Source: a virus (Duplodnaviria > Caudoviricetes). Taken from it: a DNA stretch of 64,000 nt. Of this stretch, positions 3,101-62,432 are shown one piece after another. The translations under genes were made by a program, and so were the position numbers. Below the pieces are notes generated by a model, which saw nothing but the letters and a program-made list of their open reading frames with translations, was not told the DNA's origin and did no database searches. Positions within the stretch are counted from its first letter, which is position 1; each line of letters begins with the position of its first letter. The stretch is from the IMG/VR virus record IMGVR_UViG_3300011008_002712. One strand, written 5' to 3'.

Positions 3101-6100
3101 ATTTTTCATTTCTTTTGCTGTCATTTTTTGAGAAATATATGTAGGAGTCAATTGCTTGAATTGACCGTTCTTAAAAAACATCGATATGCCTTTTTTTGTG
3201 AGTAACAAACCAGCTATTCCAAGAGCTACTTTCGATGTTGTATCTAAAACGTTTTGTTCTTCTTCATCGTCTTCCATTTCAATAAAAGAACCATCAAAAT
3301 TCATTAACCTAATTTTTGCTTTGCCTGACGACATAAACGTAGAAAGAGATTCAAAACCATTTATATTTTTATTTAATTTTTCTTTATCATCGATCAGTTG
3401 CCTATCTTTTGAAAAATAATCTATTGCTTGAGGAATTAATGACACACCCAAAGCTACTAGTCCAGCCGTTCCAGCAATTTTTCCAAATGTTTTCATGCTT
3501 CCCGGTAATGAATTTGGTATATTTTTTGGTGACGAAATACTAGGATTAGTTTTAAATGTTTTTTGCAATCCATTTAATATTGAATTTGTAATTAAACCGC
3601 TAGCTTTTCCTAACGCATATTTACCGAGTCCATATGTCATTCCAAGAGCAGTAATGCTTCCTCCAATTGTAAGCAATGGATTGTCTCCAAACATTTTTAT
3701 AAATCCTGCAGCATTTGGATCATTAGCTAAATCTCTTATCGTTTTTATGAAACTTGCAATTTTTCCAGGAAGTTTTTCTAACAAATTATCTATAAATGAT
3801 ACTGTTTTTCCTATGAGAGGAGAAAAATTCTCTTTCCATAATTCAGCTAGTCTCATTATATTAGCTTGTCTATCTGCCATAATTTGTTGTGTTATCGCAG
3901 TTTGTTGTCCCATATTTGATAAAGCTTTAGTAGCTTCAGAAATAGAATCGCTTAACTCTTTTCTTTGTTTAAATTTTTTATCATTTTTTCCAAGCAAAAT
4001 CTCTTCTATTTCATCATATTTGCCCTCTTTTTTCATGGACATCATCATAGAAACTTCTTTTTCTGAATATCCATCTTCTTTCAGCAATCTACCAAAATAT
4101 GCAAGAGACAAATTAGAGTCTGATGAACCAAAAAAATCATCATACCTTCCATATTTAGACATCATGGCTTTACCCATCATTTCTCTAAAATTTTCTACTG
4201 GTTTGCCATTCCTGTCCATAAAAATGCGGCCTCTTGTCATATTCGCATATAAATCATATCCCATTCCTGACAAGGCGCCAAAATATGCAACTTGTGATTT
4301 ATTTTGTCCAAATCGTTGAGCTACTTGTGCAGATTTTATTACTAATCCATGAGCATCTTCTATTAACATTCCTCGTTTTACAAGATTAAACATCATTTCT
4401 GTAGCATCATCTGCTGACATTCCAAGTTCATAGCTTTTTACAGCTAAAGAACTAGCTTGATTCAAATATAGTTTAACTGGTATTCCAAGAATTTTTGCCT
4501 GCTCAATTATATTTGCAATTTTTGATGATGTTTGATTTACATCTTGTTGAGAATCTTTATAATAATATTTTATTAATTGATTAAAATCATTATTATCTAA
4601 ATCATTTGCTTCTTTCATAGCAAATAAATTATAAGTAAATTGACTTAAATCTTCTCTATTTTTCTCTGGATTAGAATTATATCTTCCTCCAATTTGTCTA
4701 GCCAAAGATTGATAAAATTGAGTTGGAGCAGCCAATTGAATTTGTCCAGCAGTTAAATGTTGAAAACGAGCTCCCATTCTATAGATACGATTGTAGTTAT
4801 CATTTTCAGCAATATTTGCTCCCAACATTTGGTCTGCTAATGCAGCTTGTTGCATTAATTTACCGCTAGATACATCTGCATTTTTTGTGTCACTTAGTAA
4901 TTTGGAAAGTGAGATAATTCCGCCAAGACCCATCATAGCCAATGCAGAATTAAACATTCCCCACCAACCAGAAACACCACTCATAATCTTATCACCAAGA
5001 GATTCTTTGTTCTCTTGTGACTTGGCTTTTGACATAGCTCTTTCTCTATCTACCAATTCAGCATTAATTGATTTTAATTGCTTTAAATATTCTGAATCTG
5101 AATTAAGTATCTCTAAAGAATTAATCAAATTGACAGTATTAGCTATTTGCGTTTGAAGATCTTTTTGAATCTTATCATAATTTTCTTTTTCTTTCGTTGT
5201 CATTTTTTTATATTCGTTATCAACTAATGACATCGATCTTCTTAAAACCATGCTACTATCATTAACAACTGTAGTAGAAATAGATTTAATAAACGCATCT
5301 GCAGATGAATGATTAGATATTTGACTTAGAAAACTTTGTTGATCTTGTATAAAACTAGGAGAAATCAATGATCTTACAAATGATTCATTTTCAATTTCTT
5401 GGTAGCCCTGAGAAACTAATCTATTTTGTTGTTGTACAAATGGAATTTTTCTTAATGTGTTTTCTTGTAAAATTTCTCTTGAATTTCTAACAGATGAAAA
5501 TTCATTAGTCATTGGTTTTACAAAACCAGCAAACATTTTCGCTAATTGAACAGATAAATTTTCATTAGATTTAAGATTTTCTTTCTTCGTTGAATCTTTT
5601 ATTTCTGCTTGATGATCGTTTATTTTATCAGAAACTATCACATTAATAGTTTCAAGACTATTTTGTATAGTATTAAACGTATCATCTTGCAAATTATTTG
5701 GATTAACATTTTCTGAAAGTTCGGCCGTCGTATTTCTTCTTATCAACAATTTGTCATGTTCATCTTGTATTTGATGCATTCTTTGATATGCTTTTAATGC
5801 ATCTTCCATAGTGTTGATAGGAGATTTTGTTATATTATTAGATGTTTTTGCTGCTTGAAGCATTTGAGCATTAATATTATCAATCATATCAGCAGCTGAA
5901 ACTTTTTCGTTTTTTACTATCTTATTTAAAGAATTTATTATAGAATTTATGTCATGAGATGTATTAGCAATAGAACTAGCGTGTTGTATGTCTAAGTTCT
6001 TGCTAATAAATTCTTTGCTCATTTCGTCATTAATTCTAATTAATTTTCTAGCTGAATCATTGACATCTTCTCCAATAACTCCAGCTATATGACTAGAAAA

Positions 6101-7116: not shown

Positions 7117-10100
7117 TTAGTTTATAACACAATCAGCGGAAATTTCTACATTATTCATATATTTTTCTGCTATATTTTTAATTATTTCAATTGCTTCTTT
7201 AAAATGCTTTTTAGGAATCAATTCTGGATTTAATTTAATGGCTTCTCTTATTTCATCAATTTTATCAAATTCCATATCTATTTGCGCACGTAAATCTTTT
7301 TTCAATTGTTTATCTGCATCTGTATCTTTTGTGTCATATATTCCATATTTTTCTCTTATTTTTTTTCTTTGTTCATCTAATGTAACAACCTTTTTATTGG
7401 GATCTACATACATATCATCAACCAAAGCGCCAGAAGCTATTACTCCACGTCCTTTGCTTTGAGCCATTCTTTTCATTATTGCATCAGCATTTTCTATTTG
7501 TTCTTTCGCTGTTTTACTAGAAACAATTTGTTGCGTATTTAATTCTGGTGTTGCTCCACCAAATTGAGTAGCGCCTTTTTTAGTTTCATCTGGAATCCAA
7601 TAATCAAAATCATCTCTCCACAATTCAGAGTCTGAAATTGTTTCATTTACTCTACTTTGAGTATATGTATCATTTGGATCATGAACAATGACAGAACCAT
7701 CTGAACGTAATCCAGCATACGTAATAAAATGTCCATTTTGTGTAAAATAACTTCCGGCAGATGCACCAACAACAACTGGAATATTATTTTTTAATGCTCT
7801 CAATGCTTCTTCTTTTGTGCCTTTATGGAATCCAACTCCATATTGATATTTTGCCGCAGCAAATGCTTCATGAGACATTCCAAAACCTTCATGAAATCCT
7901 TGTTTTGTTGACCAATCAGCAACGTCTCTTGGCGTTATATATCTGCCAGTCATATTACTTAATGCCATAGCTAAAGCTGTTGGACCACAAGCAGATTGTC
8001 CCATAGAATTTCCAGTACCATTCAATGTGTCATATGTTCCACCATCCCAATATTGACCATAAAGAGGTACTAATGTGCCATCAGCTAATTTAGTATATCT
8101 AATTTGATTGCCTGATGGATCAACTTGATTTGCTAGTTCTACTGAAGAACTTTGTGATGATGGTAACGAATATGTTTGTTTTTCTCCACCAATAGAACTA
8201 AGAATATTGTTAATATAATTTCTCGTTTCTTGAGGTAGAACAGACATATCATGTGTACTAGAAAAATTAGTTTTTGAAAGATTTCCTGATCCCCAGTTAT
8301 AAGCAGCCAAAACAGAAAGAATATCACCGTTATATTGCTGAATATTTTGAGCTAAGTATTTTGTACCGCCCATAACATTCTGTTCCATATCCATTCTATC
8401 AACACCAAGATATTCAGCGGTTTCTGGCATAAGCTGCATTAAACCATAAGCACCAGCACTCGATCCTCGATCATGCACAAAGCCAGATTCATTTTTTATG
8501 ACAGCAGCAACAAGTCTTGGATCTACATTATACATATTAGAGTACTTTATAATCAACTTATAGATTTCTGGATGTTCATTTTTTGCAATTTCTAAAGCAT
8601 CTCCACTTAAAGCGTTAGTCTCAAGACCAGCCAAATTTCCAGAAGAATTAAAATTTTTAAGTTTTTCTTCTTCCTCTTTCCATCTTTCTTGCCCTTTTAC
8701 AACCATATATTCATGTTCAGCCAGCAAAACATTTTGTTCTGCATAATATTTTGCCATAGCTTTTAATTCATCGGCCGTAACTCCAGATAAATCATTTGAT
8801 TTTTTTTCTTTGCCATGCCAACTATTCCATAATGACTTAATATATTGATTTAAGTTGTCTTCTTCTGCTTGAGCATGATACACATTAGCTTGTTTGAACC
8901 AATAACTATTTTCATCATTCGCGTTTTCTTGAGAATGGTAATAATAATTAGATATAAACTCATATTTGTTTCTTGTGGCTTCATTATATCTTTCATCTTG
9001 CGACATTCTTTGAAACCAGCTTCCTTTTACATTATCATCATTATCCCATTCTTTTTTCAACTGCTCAGATATTTGTTTTTTTATAAGATTAGAATCGCCC
9101 GTTGGATTTTTAGATAAATCTTTCGAAGCTTGCATAATTGCAAATTGATTATCGCCATATATCTTTAAATATTCTTGATATTTTTTAAACCAATATCCTT
9201 TTTGATCATCATTTAATTTTTGCCATTCTATATTATGATTTAATAAACTCATTGCAACTATGCTTTCAAATTCTCTATTTGATAAACCAAGTTTCATAGC
9301 TGCGTCAGCAAATGATTTAGTTTGAGCAAATGTTGATTCTTTAGCAAGAACAACTTCAAATTTTCTATTATTTATTCCAGTGTATTTATCAATAAAATTT
9401 TTTCCTTCATTTTCATCAATATTTTTTGTTTCAGACGATTTATTTTGAGCAATTATATTTTGTTGTTCTAATAAATAGTTATACTGATCGTGATGTAAAT
9501 CATATTGTTGAGGAGTTTCACTAGCTTCTGCTTGACTAAACATAGAATTATTCATAAATGGGATATTGATTGCTGCAATTCCTAAAAATCCACCAATATT
9601 TCTTGCCATATTAGTAGCTGCAGCTGGATTTCTTATGCCAACTCTAGAAGCAACAGCGGAAGTTATTCCTCCCAATAGAGTAGAACCAACTAATTCTCCA
9701 ACAGTCATTTTTGCAGTATTGACAGCTACATCTTTCATGGAAAAATCTTCTCCAGTAGCAATAGATTCAGCAAGTTCAAAACCAGCGCCCCATATAGCAT
9801 TTCTTCCCAATGTTTTTGCAGCGCCGCCCCAAGATGTCCCACCAAGACGAGCTTGTTGCATAGCTTGTTCTTTTGCAATTCTTTGTTGTTCTAATTGCTG
9901 CATATATTGTCGTCTGTTTTGATAAATTAATCTTCTTTGTGCTGATGACATTTTTGCTCCTGGCTGTGGAAGTGGCGGCAAACCAGAATGTGTTTGTCTA
10001 TTTGTAAAAAATGATTTTATTTTTTGCCATCTTGTAAGAGAAGAATTAGACATAGTATTCATGTTTGTTGGAATCTTTCCTCTTTTTAAGAATGATAATC

Positions 10101-53078: not shown

Positions 53079-53927
53079 TTGAGTATATTACTTTGGCCAA
53101 ACTTAGAAAAACATAATATTAAAGAAACATTAGATAAAGTTGTACAATATCTTTATAACAATTCAAAAAATGATATTGACAAACCAATAATGCTAAAGCA
53201 ACATGCAAAATTCTTTTATTATGACAATATTGGAATAGATTTTGAATCAAATGAAGTTATTCCAATAGCTATATCTTTTGGAGGTGATGGTACATTCCTT
53301 GGAATGTGCAGAGAATTATTAAAAAACAAATATTTTCATACGCGAGTATGCGGAATAAATTTAGGAAATCTTGGTTTCTTAACTAACATTGGAACAAATA
53401 ATTTAGCTAATAGATTGAATGATCTTGTCAATAAACATTATAAATCAATTAAAAGAAATGTCTTGATAGGGAACATTGACGATGTGAATCAAATTGCAAT
53501 CAATGATATTTCTGTAACAAAAGGCTCAATGATTTCTCGAATGCTGAACCTATCTCTTTATATAGATAATAAGTATTTTATGAATTATAGAGCAGATGGA
53601 TTAATTATTTCTACAGCAACTGGTTCTACTGGATATTCATTGTCAGCTGGAGGAAGTATCGTGCATCCATCAGTTGAGGCATTATTGATTACTCCAATTT
53701 GCGCACATTCAATTAGTATGAAACCATTAATTATAAGTTTTCGTTCTTCTATTACTATTAAAATTGATGATTCTAAAGAAGCGTTAGCAACATTTGACGG
53801 ACAAAAAAGCTATAAACTAAATAACAAACAAGAAATACATATAAAAAGTGCACCATATAAGTTAAACACGATACAATTCCAAGATTTAGATTACTATGAC
53901 ATTATAAAGGAGAAATTGATAAAATGA
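53079..53927 (+). CDS. nadK: NAD+ kinase
   Basis: GGDGT, GINLGNLGFL, ND, DGLIISTATGSTGYSLSAGG. Confidence 0.92.
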   Translation: MSILLWPNLEKHNIKETLDKVVQYLYNNSKNDIDKPIMLKQHAKFFYYDNIGIDFESNEVIPIAISFGGDGTFLGMCRELLKNKYFHTRVCGINLGNLGFLTNIGTNNLANRLNDLVNKHYKSIKRNVLIGNIDDVNQIAINDISVTKGSMISRMLNLSLYIDNKYFMNYRADGLIISTATGSTGYSLSAGGSIVHPSVEALLITPICAHSISMKPLIISFRSSITIKIDDSKEALATFDGQKSYKLNNKQEIHIKSAPYKLNTIQFQDLDYYDIIKEKLIK

Positions 53928-54382
53928 TTTTAATTTTAAAAAACATTAAAAACATAATTAACATTAATTTTTTAAAAACTGATTCAATATCATTGGATGC
54001 AACGAAGATATTTGATAGTGAAGATCATTTTGTTGCTTGTATAGAAGAAGATATTGAAATAACTAAAAAATTTTATCGAGAACTAATTAAAAAATTATTA
54101 GAAAATAAAGAATTGGATACGATTTATATTAATGATTTTAATAAAACATTGTGCGCAAAATCATATTCAGATGATTATGCAATAAAATGCAAGTATAAAA
54201 ATGGGATAGAAGAAACGTATTTTACTTATGAATATCGTCGTGAAATGAAAAACAAACTAAAAAAAGAAGAAAATGAAGAAATAACAGAAGAAATTTTGGA
54301 AGCTTTAGAAGAAAAAGAAGACAAAAATTTAGAATACTGCGACAAAGTTAGATATAGACATTGTTTTAAAAATAAAAAATAA
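53924..54382 (+). CDS. Hypothetical protein coupled to nadK
   Basis: ATGA overlap with the nadK stop. Confidence 0.55.
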   Translation: MILILKNIKNIININFLKTDSISLDATKIFDSEDHFVACIEEDIEITKKFYRELIKKLLENKELDTIYINDFNKTLCAKSYSDDYAIKCKYKNGIEETYFTYEYRREMKNKLKKEENEEITEEILEALEEKEDKNLEYCDKVRYRHCFKNKK

Positions 54383-54544
54383 AGACACCGTTCGTGTGCA
54401 AAATATGCACCTACTAACTGTCTTTATCTGATACTACATTTTTTAACAGATACAATATGTCTGTTATGGATTTATGCCCCCTGTGCTCGAGCATCTTGAT
54501 ATACGGTCACGCATAGGCCGTATATACTCGCTTAACAAGTGAGC
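54379..54544 (-). ncRNA. DGR spacer RNA 3' of the TR (structured)
   Basis: Hairpins ATATACGG..CCGTATAT, TAACAGA..TCTGTTA and terminal ATAAAGACA-GTTAGTAGG...CGAACGG-TGTCTTTAT; GGCATAAATCCA can pair with TGGGGTTATGCC 5' of the TR. Confidence 0.65.
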
Positions 54545-54664
54545 TCAGGCGAGGCGGAAGCCGATGTTAGTGTTCGTGTTGGACGAATTGTTGTTCAGAT
54601 TCCAGTAGAAGAGGCCAGCTTTCGACCCATTGTTCCAATTGCCGCCGACGTTAGCGACAACGCA
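54545..54664 (-). repeat. DGR template repeat (TR) for a C-type-lectin-fold variable region
   Basis: Conceptual translation CVVANVGGNWNNGSKAGLFYWNLNNNSSNTNTNIGFRLA*; 11 AAY codons; GC-rich island; 1.5 kb from a DGR RT. Confidence 0.9.
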
Positions 54665-54979
54665 TTTGGCATAACCCCAATGTAATTTTCTTAGGCCTGT
54701 TTACTGTATTGAACATACACGTCCAACACGAACAAACCATCGAAATTTATTTTACAGAATTAATATAGAATATAAAGCATTTCTTATAACAATGAATTTA
54801 ATGGAGACAAAATGATGAAATGTTCTTTTCAGCATGTCAAAACGCTTTCATTTTATAGCAAACAAATGTCAGATGATCAATTTGATTATTTGTTGAAGTA
54901 TACTTAAAATATAATTCATTATAAAAATGAATTATCTAAAGAATTTTTAAAATTTTTTCTAAACTACATTATGTATACA

Positions 54980-56233
54980 TTATTTGGATTCATTAATTAT
55001 TAAATAACGCCAATTATTACATGAACATTTTTTCTTTAAAAATCTAAGAGGAATTTTTAATGTTTTATTTGGTAAATAAATATAGTTGTCATTAATGTCT
55101 TTTATGTATGCATAATCTCTTGAAAATCCAGATACCCATCCAATTTTTCCTTTACAAATTACTTTGTCATTGAGACAACAATTTTTTATTTGTTTTATAT
55201 TTTTGTTGTTTCGTTTTTGAGTGGTGTTTGAATTTTTTCTTCCTTTTCTTGGGATTGCTTCATGTAAAGAACGTTTCTTTTTTCTAAATTGTTTAATGAT
55301 GAAAAAATCATTTGAATTTTCTTTTATTCGTGCGATTCCAGAAATTATGATTGCATCATTATAATGAGTCTTAGGTAAATTCAATTTATTTCTTATAGAA
55401 GATGTAGTAGAACCATTGATAAAAATGGCGGTTGAGAAAAGCTTGTTTATTTTGAATTTTATGATGTTCATAAATGTAGGATCTTTGAATTGTTTGCACT
55501 CGTGTTTTTGCATTAAATTGAATAAGATTTTTCCCTTTTTGTGATTTTCCTTTGTATGACATTTATTACAAAGTGTTATTAAATTATCTGCGCGCTCACT
55601 GCCATTCTTGTTTTTATACATAATATGGTGAATATGTAGTTTTTTTGAATTTCCGCATATCTGACATTTGTGGTTATCCCTTGCTAAAACATAATCATAA
55701 ACATTGTCATATCCAAAACATTTTCCGTGTTTATAGTCTGTTGTTGGATCAATGATTTTATGGATATTGAATTTTGCGTTTTCAATGTGAATGATTGGAT
55801 TCGGTAGTAAACTAGAAAATTTGTTTATCCAAAATAAAATGTTGTTGAATCTAGATTGAAGGCTTGGCGTTAAGAGATTTTTTGATTTTCTGTTCAAAAA
55901 TTTTGCTCTACGATATCTAGTTTTTCTTATTCTTCTAGATCTTCTTAGTTGTTTTCTTTTTAAAAGCAATTGATGAACATCTTGGCGTAATATTATTTCA
56001 CCTTTTGCAATTACATTATTTGAAGATGTAATTGCTATTCCGATATGTTTTGTTCCCATGTCAATTCCAAGATGAATTTCTTGTTTAGCTTCTCCTGTTG
56101 CATATAGAAGTTGTATTGTGAATGGCATGTAATGAATAATCTTAGCTTTCTTTTGTTTTAAAAGAATTCTAGCTTTTCTTTGAGAACATGGCATTAGTGC
56201 TTGTCCTCTTTTATTTCTAACAAAAACTCTCAA
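54980..56233 (-). CDS. iscB: IscB RNA-guided nuclease (PLMP, RuvC, bridge helix, HNH)
   Basis: ALMPC, GIDMG (RuvC-I), RRSRRIRKTRYR, IHIE (RuvC-II), HIHH...NLITLCNKCH (HNH), THYNDA (RuvC-III); catalytic residues appear intact. Confidence 0.93.
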   Translation of the reverse strand: MRVFVRNKRGQALMPCSQRKARILLKQKKAKIIHYMPFTIQLLYATGEAKQEIHLGIDMGTKHIGIAITSSNNVIAKGEIILRQDVHQLLLKRKQLRRSRRIRKTRYRRAKFLNRKSKNLLTPSLQSRFNNILFWINKFSSLLPNPIIHIENAKFNIHKIIDPTTDYKHGKCFGYDNVYDYVLARDNHKCQICGNSKKLHIHHIMYKNKNGSERADNLITLCNKCHTKENHKKGKILFNLMQKHECKQFKDPTFMNIIKFKINKLFSTAIFINGSTTSSIRNKLNLPKTHYNDAIIISGIARIKENSNDFFIIKQFRKKKRSLHEAIPRKGRKNSNTTQKRNNKNIKQIKNCCLNDKVICKGKIGWVSGFSRDYAYIKDINDNYIYLPNKTLKIPLRFLKKKCSCNNWRYLIINESK

Positions 56234-56239
56234 GTTTTG

Positions 56240-56481
56240 TTCCTCCTATCTAATGATATGAGTTTGATTGCCCTTCGCTAATGTTGTAATCGCTTACTTA
56301 CAATGGTAAGCTGTCCTTGGGTTGACCATTTTTCATCTCTAAAAACTTTTACAGAGCCCAAACAGTGTCATAAACTAGAGCATCATTTATGAGTGTTATA
56401 ACGAAAACAACGTAGTCATTATGACTTAAGCTAATCAATGATATGAAAGAGATGCATTGATTTGCCGCCAACGTTAATTTT
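56240..56481 (-). ncRNA. omegaRNA of IscB (guide ~56481-56462, scaffold from 56461)
   Basis: ATCAATG..CATTGATTAGCTTAAG..GACTACGTT..TGATGCTCTAGT..CTCTGT..AACATTAGCGAAGG directly upstream of iscB, matching HEARO/omegaRNA landmarks. Confidence 0.8.
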
Positions 56482-56711
56482 ATTTTAATAAAAAAAATAA
56501 AATAAAAACTATTGATATTTTAGATATCAATGGTTTTATAATGTTTATGTATAATTTATAAAATTATTTTGGAATTTTTTGTGGATGTTTAAAAGCTTCA
56601 AATTTGTCCTTCATAGAACAAATTTTTGTAGAAATAACATAGATTTATTTGATTCCACAAAATTTATGAAACTTAAAATAAATAAATTAAAAATAAAAAG
56701 GAGAAAATAAA

Positions 56712-56921
56712 ATGAAATTTATTGTAGGATTGTTAGGGTTGACATTTGGTGTTGCTATGTTTTTTGTTATTTCAATTGTTCTTGATGTTGCTGTTTCATC
56801 GATAGTATTAGCTCTAATTGATTTCTTTCTTGGTACATCTTATTTTACAGCACAATACGTTGCAATTATGACTGTCATTTTATTTTTGATTGGGTTATTA
56901 AGGAAATCAAAATGTAAGTAA
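56712..56921 (+). CDS. Small two-TM membrane protein
   Basis: Hydrophobic 69 aa; AGGAG RBS. Confidence 0.65.
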   Translation: MKFIVGLLGLTFGVAMFFVISIVLDVAVSSIVLALIDFFLGTSYFTAQYVAIMTVILFLIGLLRKSKCK

Positions 56922-56982
56922 AATTAACAAACAATTTGAGTTTATTCATTTTATGAAATAAATAAATATATCAAAATTAACA

Positions 56983-57875: not shown

Positions 57876-59577
57876 GGCGAGAAGACTCCCGCCTCTTAGC
57901 GAAGCGTAAGCGGGAGATGAATCGCCACACTCTTTGACTCAAAACCATACCAAATTCCATCCAAGAATGGAATATATGTGCTATAATATAGAGCAGCAAG
58001 TATTCCACAAGAGAAGGGAGTGAATCAGCCATGAATCAGCTACAGCAAGCCTTGCTGGAACAAAACCTGCTCGAAACTGTCAAGGAGGAATTCCAGTATG
58101 GATATGTCTACGAAATCTACCCTGATAAAGAACAACGTCAGTATATCCATAGGAATTGCGGCTGCAAAAGGCAGATTCACAATCTTTTTGTGGATGAGCT
58201 GTATCACTATCTCGAAAACATAAACTTTAAAAAAGGAGCTATCCCTGGCGAATTCATCAAAAATCTGTCTAAGGCTAAATTCTACAAGGAAAAATTCCCT
58301 TACATGAAGGAAGTTGATTCCCTGGCACTGTCTGCTGCCCGCCTGGATTTTGTCGCTTCGATACGGAAATATAATTCAGAATATGTACCTAAAGGCAATC
58401 CATACAAAAAGAAGGCTCTTAAGCAGGTGAAAACTATCGGCAAGGAGCTTACCTTTTGCGACCTGAAAGGAATGCCTAAATTCTCGGCAAAATATTTTTC
58501 TGAGCAGTCCTTCACTACGAATAACCAAAATGGCACTGTCATGCTTGAAGAATATTCCAGCGGAAACAAAAAATATATGGCTCTGACTATACCGAAGCTG
58601 AAGAATCCCATCAAGCTGCGGTATCATCGGGAAATCCCTGAAAAGGCGAAAATCACCAAGGTTGTCATACATCGCATCGGACAAGATAAATACACTGCTT
58701 CTTTGGCGGTGGTATTCACCAAAGAATATCTTGCCCTGAAGCATGATCAGAAATCACTGGAAAAATTCAAGAAGTTCCTACATGAACATCATGAGTATTG
58801 CCTTGGACTGGATTATTCTCAGCAGGAAGGTTGCGTACCAAGCACAAAAGACAAAGTCCTGCTGGAAAATATTCTGAATACATTTCAAAAGACATACCGA
58901 AAAAATGAGCAGAAACTGCAAGCACTTCAAAGGCAGCTTTCCAAAAAAATCAAGCAAAGCAACGCTTACCTAAAGTTGCGGAGCAAAATCAAGAGACTGC
59001 ACAAAAAGATTGCCAATATCCGAAAGAATGCCCTAAATGTGCTCTCATACAGTATGGCAAGACAGTTTGCCATGGTATCTGTTGAGGACATTGACCTTCG
59101 TGGAATGTCCCAGACGCTCAGGCTGGCAAAAAACCTTCTGGATAATGGCTTTGGCATGTTTCGGGAGATGCTTGCATATAAGCTTAAAGCCAACGGATAT
59201 GTCTTTGTTAAGATAGGCCGTTTCGAGAAATCCACACAGACCTGCCATGAATGCGGTCATATCAATACGTTTACCAAAAACATGAATATCAAGGAATACG
59301 ACTGCGGTGGCTGCGGCAGACATCTGAATCGCGACTACAACGCAGCTTTGAATATTCGTGATATGGGAATTCAAACTGTTTCGACTGACCTTTTTCAGGA
59401 GAAAAAAGCTAAATTCTCACTCGCTGCTCTGCGAGCAAAAAAGAGTAGGGCCGGGAACCTGTCCTAAAGTCCGGTAGGAGTGACCGCATACGCCTTTCAG
59501 CAGGTCTAGCATTTGCTGAACGGTAGCGGCACGATGACGACTGGAAACTCCTGCCTCTACAGGCAGGAGTAGTTCAC
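57876..59577 (+). mobile_element. TnpB-only IS200/IS605-family (IS1341-like) element
   Basis: TTGAT before the left end; left hairpin CTCCCGC..GCGGGAG; right hairpin ACTCCTGCCT..AGGCAGGAGT followed by TTCAC; higher GC than the phage background. Confidence 0.8.
58031..59467 (+). CDS. tnpB: TnpB
   Basis: YEIYPDKEQ, LGLDYS, VSVEDIDL, TCHECG..CGGCG, NRDYNAALNI. Confidence 0.9.
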   Translation: MNQLQQALLEQNLLETVKEEFQYGYVYEIYPDKEQRQYIHRNCGCKRQIHNLFVDELYHYLENINFKKGAIPGEFIKNLSKAKFYKEKFPYMKEVDSLALSAARLDFVASIRKYNSEYVPKGNPYKKKALKQVKTIGKELTFCDLKGMPKFSAKYFSEQSFTTNNQNGTVMLEEYSSGNKKYMALTIPKLKNPIKLRYHREIPEKAKITKVVIHRIGQDKYTASLAVVFTKEYLALKHDQKSLEKFKKFLHEHHEYCLGLDYSQQEGCVPSTKDKVLLENILNTFQKTYRKNEQKLQALQRQLSKKIKQSNAYLKLRSKIKRLHKKIANIRKNALNVLSYSMARQFAMVSVEDIDLRGMSQTLRLAKNLLDNGFGMFREMLAYKLKANGYVFVKIGRFEKSTQTCHECGHINTFTKNMNIKEYDCGGCGRHLNRDYNAALNIRDMGIQTVSTDLFQEKKAKFSLAALRAKKSRAGNLS

Positions 59578-60861: not shown

Positions 60862-62432
60862 CGTCCCCCCCGCCAAGAAGTCTCCCGCCTTTTAGGCGGT
60901 GAGATGAATTGGCGAATTTTTATAAAATAAATGATATACTTTTTTAGTAAAGGAGGTGAATAAGGAATGGCAGTAAAGGTTATAAAAACTAACTTCACGG
61001 CGATACCTGAAGATATAGAACGACTTTTTGCTTGTAACAGAATATCCGGGATGATTTGGAATAAAGTTTTGCAGATAGCCAAAGATTATAGCCTTACTCA
61101 CGATGGCAAATGGGCGGGTATAACTTATCTTCAATCAGCTACAAAAAATATTTATCCTCTACATTCTCAGAGTGTTCAGGCGGTTGTTCATAAATATCTT
61201 TTTGCTAGAGACTCTGCCTACCAAGCCAGACTCAAAGGCTTAAAAAATAAATATCCTTGGTGTTCAAAGAAAAATTTTAACACCAAATGGGTTGACCAAG
61301 CTTTTGCTTTTGATTTCAAAGCAAGAACTTTGACTCTTTCTTTGGGTATCTGGAATCATAAAAAACAGAATCCAATCTTGCTTTCTCTTCCATTAGATGT
61401 CATTACAAAACTAAAAAATATCTCCTCCAAATGTAAAAACGCTATCTCTGAAATAGAATTAATATACGACAATGGCCTTTTTCTTTGTATCACCTATGAT
61501 GATGGGGAAAAAGCTCCTAAAAGCATCGATTCAATCGAAATAGCTGGTGTGGATCTAGGAGAAATCCATACTATAGCAGCCTGTGCTACTAATGGTAAAT
61601 CTATCATCATCACAGGTAGAAAGCTACGTTCCATTCATAGGCTCCGTAATAAATTGATCTCTAAAATCCAAAAAGCACAAGCTAAATGTAAAAAAGGTTC
61701 TCGCTGTTGGAAAAAGTTACAACGTAAAAAGCGGTTTATCCTTTCGAAATCAAAGCACCAAGTAGCATACAAGACACATGAAATAACAAAGAATTTCGTG
61801 GACTGGTGTGTAGAGAATAAAATAACTAAAGTATACTGTGGAGATCCAGAGGGAGTGCAACGCAATACCTCCGGCAGGAAGAAAAAGAACCGCACTACAG
61901 CAAAGAGTAGAAAGAAAATCCGCAAGCGGAAGGTATCTCAGAGACTTTCGAACTGGAATTTTGGGAAGGTAAAAGACTATCTGAGATATAAGCTTCAAAA
62001 CAAAGGGATTACTTTTGAGGAGATAAATGAAGCATATACCTCCCAGACCTGTCCAGTATGCGGTAGGCGGCATAAAACCAGCAGTAGGAATTATGTATGC
62101 ACATGTGGATATAAAGCCCATAGGGATGTACATGGATCGCATAATATCTTATCCCTTGGATTAACAGGGCGTTTTGAAAAAATCTGTGATTTTGAGACAC
62201 AGAAGCCCAAGTATCTACGGCTGACTGCGTGAATAGTCAGAGTTGTATGTAGAAGCTCACGAACCGAGCCACGGTAGGTAATCCCTGCTGCGTAGCCTGT
62301 TTTAGATAACTGAAGAATGAGTACGACAACCTTCGGTTCCGTAGGAAAAGGTCAACACCTTTTCCCTCCGTTCATTCGACATCTATCGTTAAAAACAGGA
62401 AGCCCCCACTTTTTTAAGTGGGGGAGGTTCAC
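60862..62432 (+). mobile_element. TnpB-only IS200/IS605-family element; boundaries defined by the empty paralogous site
   Basis: TTTAA|CGTCCCC...CCCCCACTT..AAGTGGGGGAGGTTCAC|TCATAAAAATG versus empty TTTAA|TCACAAAAATG at 57107-57122. Confidence 0.9.
60967..62232 (+). CDS. tnpB: TnpB
   Basis: LHSQSVQ, GVDLGEIH, EINEAYTSQTCPVCG..CTCG, HRDVHGSHNI. Confidence 0.9.
   Translation: MAVKVIKTNFTAIPEDIERLFACNRISGMIWNKVLQIAKDYSLTHDGKWAGITYLQSATKNIYPLHSQSVQAVVHKYLFARDSAYQARLKGLKNKYPWCSKKNFNTKWVDQAFAFDFKARTLTLSLGIWNHKKQNPILLSLPLDVITKLKNISSKCKNAISEIELIYDNGLFLCITYDDGEKAPKSIDSIEIAGVDLGEIHTIAACATNGKSIIITGRKLRSIHRLRNKLISKIQKAQAKCKKGSRCWKKLQRKKRFILSKSKHQVAYKTHEITKNFVDWCVENKITKVYCGDPEGVQRNTSGRKKKNRTTAKSRKKIRKRKVSQRLSNWNFGKVKDYLRYKLQNKGITFEEINEAYTSQTCPVCGRRHKTSSRNYVCTCGYKAHRDVHGSHNILSLGLTGRFEKICDFETQKPKYLRLTA

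Follow-up and report, generated by a model that had tools for sequence, protein, structure and literature searches.

As judged from sequence comparison, four phage lineages each keep the gene of an RNA-guided nuclease beside the template repeat (TR) of a DGR, without the ends of an insertion sequence (IS), and the link between the guides and the TR is real, general and recurrent across these relatives. The DNA analysed here, referred to as the window, is a stretch of 64,000 nucleotides from a tailed phage (IMG/VR record IMGVR_UViG_3300011008_002712), in which an omegaRNA and an iscB gene adjoin the TR. This IscB is most likely an immobilised OMEGA nuclease, now free-standing, that would attack the TR versions of rival phages. 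The features concerned are the following:

56505-56537, minus strand: terminator-like hairpin with a U-rich run (z -3.7), setting the omegaRNA unit apart from upstream DNA
56462-56476, minus strand: guide of 15 nt, in the same sense as the TR RNA, predicted from its position
56263-56461, minus strand: HEARO scaffold of the omegaRNA, in which the first stem is short and the IS-end palindrome missing
54980-56233, minus strand: iscB (417 aa), with RuvC residues D58, E151, H290 and D293 and HNH residue H203 intact
54694-54741, minus strand: degenerate inverted copy of the TR 3' half, pairing with the TR in the predicted RNA (z -4.7)
54546-54664, minus strand: DGR template repeat, with an approximate 5' boundary
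54639-54653, minus strand: protospacer in the TR, covering the loop and 3' arm of a hairpin of 9-10 bp in all five TR versions
54633-54638, minus strand: candidate TAM, TTGGAA (family TAM inferred as TTRAA)
54384-54545, minus strand: spacer on the 3' side of the TR; all relatives conserve motifs in it
53079-54382, plus strand: NAD kinase and a 152-aa ORF between TR and RT, missing at that position in the relative L043
51931-53019, minus strand: DGR reverse transcriptase (RT, 362 aa) with GNLTSQ and YMDD motifs

On the minus strand the order is terminator-like hairpin, guide, HEARO, iscB, TR with its 3' spacer, the opposite-strand NAD kinase unit and RT. The earlier note had claimed a match of 14/15 between the 15 nt preceding the omegaRNA scaffold (56476-56462) and the TR (54653-54639), ending exactly where the scaffold starts, and this was confirmed by sequence comparison and by the Rfam HEARO model, which begins at 56461, immediately after the guide (86 bits, cut-off 83). 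In a sister strain (L040), Rfam places the scaffold start about 45 nt further upstream; the upstream copy folds there as a terminator-like hairpin of its own with a perfect stem (z -4.8), and only the inner stem is found in the relatives L041 and L043. Position 56461 was retained as the start because the upstream copy is a separate hairpin without a counterpart in L041 and L043. Guide and TR disagree at a single base, at a distance of 9 nt from the 3' flank; it gives a U:G wobble and, in the TR frame, a synonymous GTT/GTC change. When the 416,024-bp record of the phage was scanned with the guide, the TR was the sole place at one mismatch or fewer. The probability that an anchored 15-mer matches a 120-nt TR this well by chance was recomputed at about 1e-5, the same size as first estimated, and the 5' flanks of 51 IscB loci from homologue searches, compared with five TRs as a control, reached at most 11/15. 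The proposal that TTGGAA serves as TAM held in part: it is near-cognate to the TTRAA of mobile relatives, and only near-cognate because the TAM of those relatives is inferred as TTRAA, whereas OgeuIscB (NWRRNA), to which it had been compared, is just distant kin.

The DGR appears to be active, and on sequence grounds it is complete but split, with the target-avd and TR-RT units lying about 15 kb apart. The RT carries the GxxxSQ and YxDD motifs, is about 50% identical to RTs of target-avd-TR-RT loci and is strongly conserved (dN/dS 0.02-0.09). A search of the full genome for variable repeats (VRs) had been suggested; no VR, Avd or lectin target was found in the 416-kb record by adenine-aware scan, tblastn or HMM, but the end of a VR and an avd-like gene are seen in a second assembly of the same phage (L256), which runs past the window end, and the idea of an orphan DGR was dropped once this neighbouring assembly had revealed them. 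The VR shares the strand of the TR and is located about 15 kb upstream of it, beyond the 416-kb record. In the 73 nt visible (L256 1-73), all 11 TR/VR differences fall at TR adenines, so that 11 of 18 TR adenines are altered, which makes the VR a poor standing target for the guide and the TR a permanent one. The assembled part of the target gene comprises its last 25 codons, and the contig is interrupted within the VR at a point about 20 nt downstream from the guide site, as hypervariability would lead one to expect; since the 5' part of the VR is missing, the 5' boundary of the TR is approximate. The avd gene (L256 717-1637) matches bAvd at E 3.6e-6, under the curated cut-off, and canonical Avd at E 1.5e-11 by BLASTP; about 200 extra N-terminal residues of its product have no Pfam match at cut-off.

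Two other sequences were considered as variable repeats and ruled out: the guide, whose differences from the TR fall outside adenines, and the inverted arm, in which the differences are not adenine-specific and the frame is broken. The inverted copy of the TR 3' half is also present in L041 (about 8100-8180) and in a further relative, L083 (about 4950-5030), and missing in L043. It may be an old duplication, as the L041 copy is by eye nearer to the window-type TR than to its own TR. The hairpin of 9-10 bp at the TR 5' end (window 54638-54661, minus strand), which overlaps the protospacer, is kept in all five TR versions. Inverted repeats of 134 bp (L256 1835-1967 and 415891-416024 of the 416-kb record) lie on either side of the unassembled segment that includes the DGR target and avd; the copy at the far end of the record, inverted relative to that adjoining avd, follows long genes that by inspection only resemble tail-fibre genes. 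These repeats presumably resemble an IS end. The segment between them may be invertible.

The nuclease itself is a typical IscB that has lost the marks of mobility. Its product exceeds the IscB profile NF040563 cut-off (313 bits against 175), with RRXRR/PLMP, split RuvC and HNH domains; the dN/dS of iscB points to purifying selection (0.16 against the sister strain, range 0.16-0.36). In mobile IscB relatives, GTCAA and a GC-rich hairpin open the element, and a second hairpin, with TTRAA after it, closes it; in the window, where iscB is a single copy, the IS-end hairpins are missing at both ends, as they also are in L041 and L043. The omegaRNA 5' stem lacks the IS-end palindrome, as had been claimed, while the two TnpB elements of the window keep theirs. 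Domestication, suggested earlier for iscB in the window, is supported and, with the link between guide and TR, reaches across four phage lineages, all of them without IS ends. A simple IS insertion into a copy of the TR was ruled out, in agreement with the earlier note: the TR never resumes after iscB, and the empty site cannot be rebuilt from guide and far flank, as iscB is followed by 311 nt and then by a whole TR. The TnpB elements (58031-59467 and 60967-62232, plus strand) are ordinary ones with intact GC-rich ends, and the right flank of the first repeats 56879-56966, near a duplication spaced by 5.4 kb.

The expectation that guide and TR would correspond in related phages, with conserved iscB-TR synteny, was borne out: guides match the TR in all IscB lineages, at two TR sites, and iscB also lies beside the TR in L040, L041 and L043. 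The sister strain L040 (IscB 97% identical) has the same guide as the window with an intact iscB, and there the TR match is 15/15. In L041 (RT 83%, IscB 56%), iscB is inverted, adjoins the TR and has a guide for the same TR site; an in-frame TAG stands at codon 11 in three of the contigs listed, next to an intact RT. In L043 (RT 80%, IscB 49-54%), iscB, TR and RT are immediate neighbours, located elsewhere in the genome, and the guide addresses a different TR site, at 11/12 or, if one base is spare, at 11/11 before an exact TTGAA. L083 is about 97% identical to L041 and lacks iscB; in its slot stands a TnpB-like gene of 542 aa (PDB 9J09 by profile match, E 5e-6; no Pfam hit) that has lost the right-end hairpin typical of its family. 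At the 3' end of this gene, just before a hairpin, lies a 13-mer antisense to the same TR site (12/13, reached in 45 of 5000 shuffles), which is a probable TR-antisense guide of the TnpB-like nuclease. The RuvC and HNH catalytic residues are intact in all three IscBs compared.

TRs with GTT also adjoin iscB in L086, L087 and run X1, where the guides are not visible, and guide variants were not resolved in the contigs of four runs; no nuclease-free allele was found across the four lineages. In the IscB tree, the sequences of the window and L041 form one group (98), and that of L043 joins another mobile subclade (86). The best tree has two origins and a single origin was not rejected (p-AU 0.225). 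Two histories would account for this: separate acquisition of the TR as a target on two or three occasions, or a single guide redirected to another site within the TR. Between L041 (8329-8388) and L083, 19 of 60 positions of the TR 3' spacer differ, which suggests a recombined patch, the strains being otherwise near-identical. In L045 (988-2247), the RT continues into unrelated sequence and then a TonB-receptor-like gene; this contig is probably chimeric.

This is a giant phage of rumen type, related to jumbo phages. Its 416-kb record includes an AGT-family gene (122586-123485) and a CMP-hydroxymethylase-like gene (126621-127283), which suggests glycosylated hydroxymethylcytosine DNA, together with a tmRNA (240720-241049) and 12 tRNAs (248376-256453); no tubulin match or CRISPR array was found in it. 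Selenomonadaceae is a lead as host family, taken only from RT and IscB neighbours. A promoter scan gave results at chance level. Pattern scans for TR/VR across viral, metagenome and genome collections returned no match, scans with RT and Avd no further clade members, and INPHARED distant DGRs only. No RT was within reach of any of 34 viral IscB loci and no IscB of any of 35 DGR loci.

On balance, we consider it probable that the IscB acts in RNA-guided intronless homing or in allele exclusion between co-infecting relatives. The guide would originally have been the sequence flanking an IS that had inserted into a TR; a complete TR would then have been restored next to the element. During co-infection, the RNP would cut the TR of related jumbo phages with a matching allele, and repair from the nuclease-bearing genome would co-convert TR and nuclease gene alike; in the other version, the rival would be excluded. 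Self would be spared partly by TR substitutions in the protospacer and, where the self match is perfect, possibly by the near-cognate TAM or by cytosine modification. As a side effect, the TR of the winner would later rewrite the receptor-binding VR of the rival. The TR makes a good target because the DGR keeps it conserved, and the nuclease is free-standing and adjoins that conserved target, as an intronless homing nuclease does. Intronless homing is established for the T4 Seg/Mob enzymes (PMC13565253).

Homing against the TR alleles of relatives, one of the options raised earlier, fits the relatives best. The L041 guide matches the L083 TR at 12/14, with wobbles only, against 10/14 for its own TR; the codon in the guide site is GCT in the L041 guide, GTC in the L041 TR and GCT in the TR of L083, which lacks iscB. 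Across 240 nt, L041 and L083 differ at three positions, two of them inside the protospacer, and four or five of the six differences between the window and L043 TRs fall inside guide windows (post hoc p 0.03-0.007). Cutting of the TR DNA followed by escape would be expected to leave such a clustering in guide-matched sites. The guides also fit the TRs of their own clade better than distant DGRs. The differing nucleases, strands and TR sites speak against a single fixed cut geometry, and the nuclease swap in the slot, together with these differences and the early stop in L041, would be easier to reconcile with a selfish cycle than with a set step in retrohoming; the TAG at codon 11 makes the L041 gene look like a decaying homing gene.

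However, the accompanying idea that the GTC/GTT mismatch protects self fails as a general rule. While L041 and L083 fit a pattern of immune self and matched non-self, the 15/15 self match beside an intact iscB in L040 contradicts it, and the GTT TRs beside iscB in L086, L087 and X1 likewise speak against homing. Most guide mismatches are wobbles, and IscB has been reported as permissive of mismatches and strict on the TAM (GstIscB; bioRxiv 10.1101/2023.03.14.532601). The departure of TTGGAA from TTRAA, the permissive wobbles and the lack of a nuclease-free allele would all count against homing. Moreover, if the relatives share cytosine glucosylation, it could protect the targets no less than self, a point against homing and in favour of a weapon aimed at unmodified phages.

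That IscB is instead a functional partner of the DGR, whose nick or R-loop at the 5' part of the VR aids cDNA integration, seems to us unlikely, and it is equally doubtful that jumbo-phage DGRs repeatedly recruited guided nucleases for retrohoming, whether for opening or nicking the VR or for sorting cDNAs by their adenine changes. The mechanism of DGR cDNA integration is unresolved and is thought to use a transient opening of the target as limiting step (PMC12875486). An IscB R-loop would pair with the template strand and displace the coding strand, thereby exposing the strand needed for pairing with the antisense cDNA. In another version, the guide, through its complementarity to the cDNA, could serve to trim or remove cDNAs or VRs that retain TR adenines. 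A partnership is consistent with the presence of a nuclease in 4/4 lineages, the purifying selection on IscB, the tolerated perfect self match in L040, a split DGR that appears active, and the iscB kept by the L043 cassette at its other genomic site. Against it, the best DNA target is the TR rather than the VR: at the rate of 11/18 altered adenines, a VR keeps both seed adenines in about 15% of cases and all six relevant adenines in about 0.3%. Of the earlier proposal of IscB acting on the VR, the existence of a VR stood, though it makes a poor standing target. The candidate guide of the L083 TnpB has the reverse polarity, the L041 iscB stops early while the RT is intact, and the BPP-1 DGR functions on four core parts alone.

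It is distinctly improbable that the nuclease is a weapon aimed at temperate phages or prophages that share the host and carry DGRs on unmodified DNA, while glycosylated hydroxymethylcytosine shields self. Such a weapon would account for the perfect self match, and the phage has genes that fit it, one CMP-hydroxymethylase-like (E 1e-33) and one of the AGT family (E 9e-8). Cas9 is impaired by glucosylation, Cas12a is not (PMC5778469). However, TRs and VRs of distant DGRs match the guides worse (best 13/15 with another flank, mostly 8-10), the target pattern occurs in 7 of 262 Selenomonadaceae genomes, below reversed controls, although this may not be the host family, and the modification is deduced from genes alone.

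Slightly less credible still is a neutral relic: IS elements would have landed in the TR, duplication or recombination would have mended it, and the guides would be what is left of the flanks. In one register, the L043 guide gives an insertion site exactly of TTRAA type, C-to-T drift accounts for most guide mismatches, and the IscB branches are long, but GC-rich guides have been kept within AT-rich DNA although synonymous divergence is saturated (dS above 1), the catalytic residues are intact, as is the scaffold, and dN/dS stays below 1. Least probable of all is binding-only repression of TR transcription, the last of the earlier options: short guides (11-15 nt) and a near-cognate TAM could permit binding without cutting, but with every active-site residue of RuvC and HNH intact in the three IscBs, unlike in nuclease-dead TldR, catalytic loss lends it no support, and pairing of the guide with the template strand is the less effective orientation for a roadblock of Cas9 type.

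A link between an OMEGA nuclease (IscB or TnpB) and a DGR was not found in the literature searched and is, as far as that search goes, undescribed. If homing is true, this would be RNA-guided intronless homing aimed at the template that sets the receptor repertoire of a phage, recruited two or three times in one clade. If instead the coupling to retrohoming is true, the entry of DGR cDNA into its target would become directly testable, and the system would be a natural nuclease-plus-RT editor, a guided nuclease coupled to an error-prone reverse transcriptase. Natural matched guide and target alleles are at hand for testing.

Compared with known systems, the window element shares with the IscB-omegaRNA of IS200/IS605 elements (GstIscB, bioRxiv 10.1101/2023.03.14.532601; OgeuIscB, PDB 7UTN/7XHT) the RRXRR/PLMP, split RuvC and HNH domains, the upstream HEARO, the guide 5' of the scaffold and the 3' TAM; in contrast to them, it is single-copy, has no IS-end hairpins, does not spell its empty site and has as target an intact element 1.8 kb away. 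With the DGRs of BPP-1 type and of Firmicute phages (target-avd-TR-RT; L004, L008, L028-L033), this DGR has in common the RT motifs, the AAC-rich TR, adenine-only TR/VR differences, a putative lectin-type C-terminus and Avd. It differs from them in its division into two units 15 kb apart, in an Avd of 306 aa with a long N-terminal extension, in the inverted arm preceding the TR and in the guided nuclease adjoining it. The free-standing endonucleases SegB and SegF of T4 (PMC13565253) likewise pair a nuclease gene with a conserved target beside it and occupy a slot whose occupant differs between sister phages; they tell self apart by substitutions, as may also be so in L041. Unlike these, the window nuclease is RNA-guided rather than protein-specified and its target is a non-coding DGR template; discrimination of self from non-self fails in L040, and homing is here a proposal from sequence. 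Finally, TldR, a domesticated TnpB (bioRxiv 10.1101/2023.11.30.569447), shares the loss of mobility and a fixed guide against a gene family of its own carrier, but whereas TldR is nuclease-dead, the nucleases described here retain their catalytic residues and are mostly IscB.
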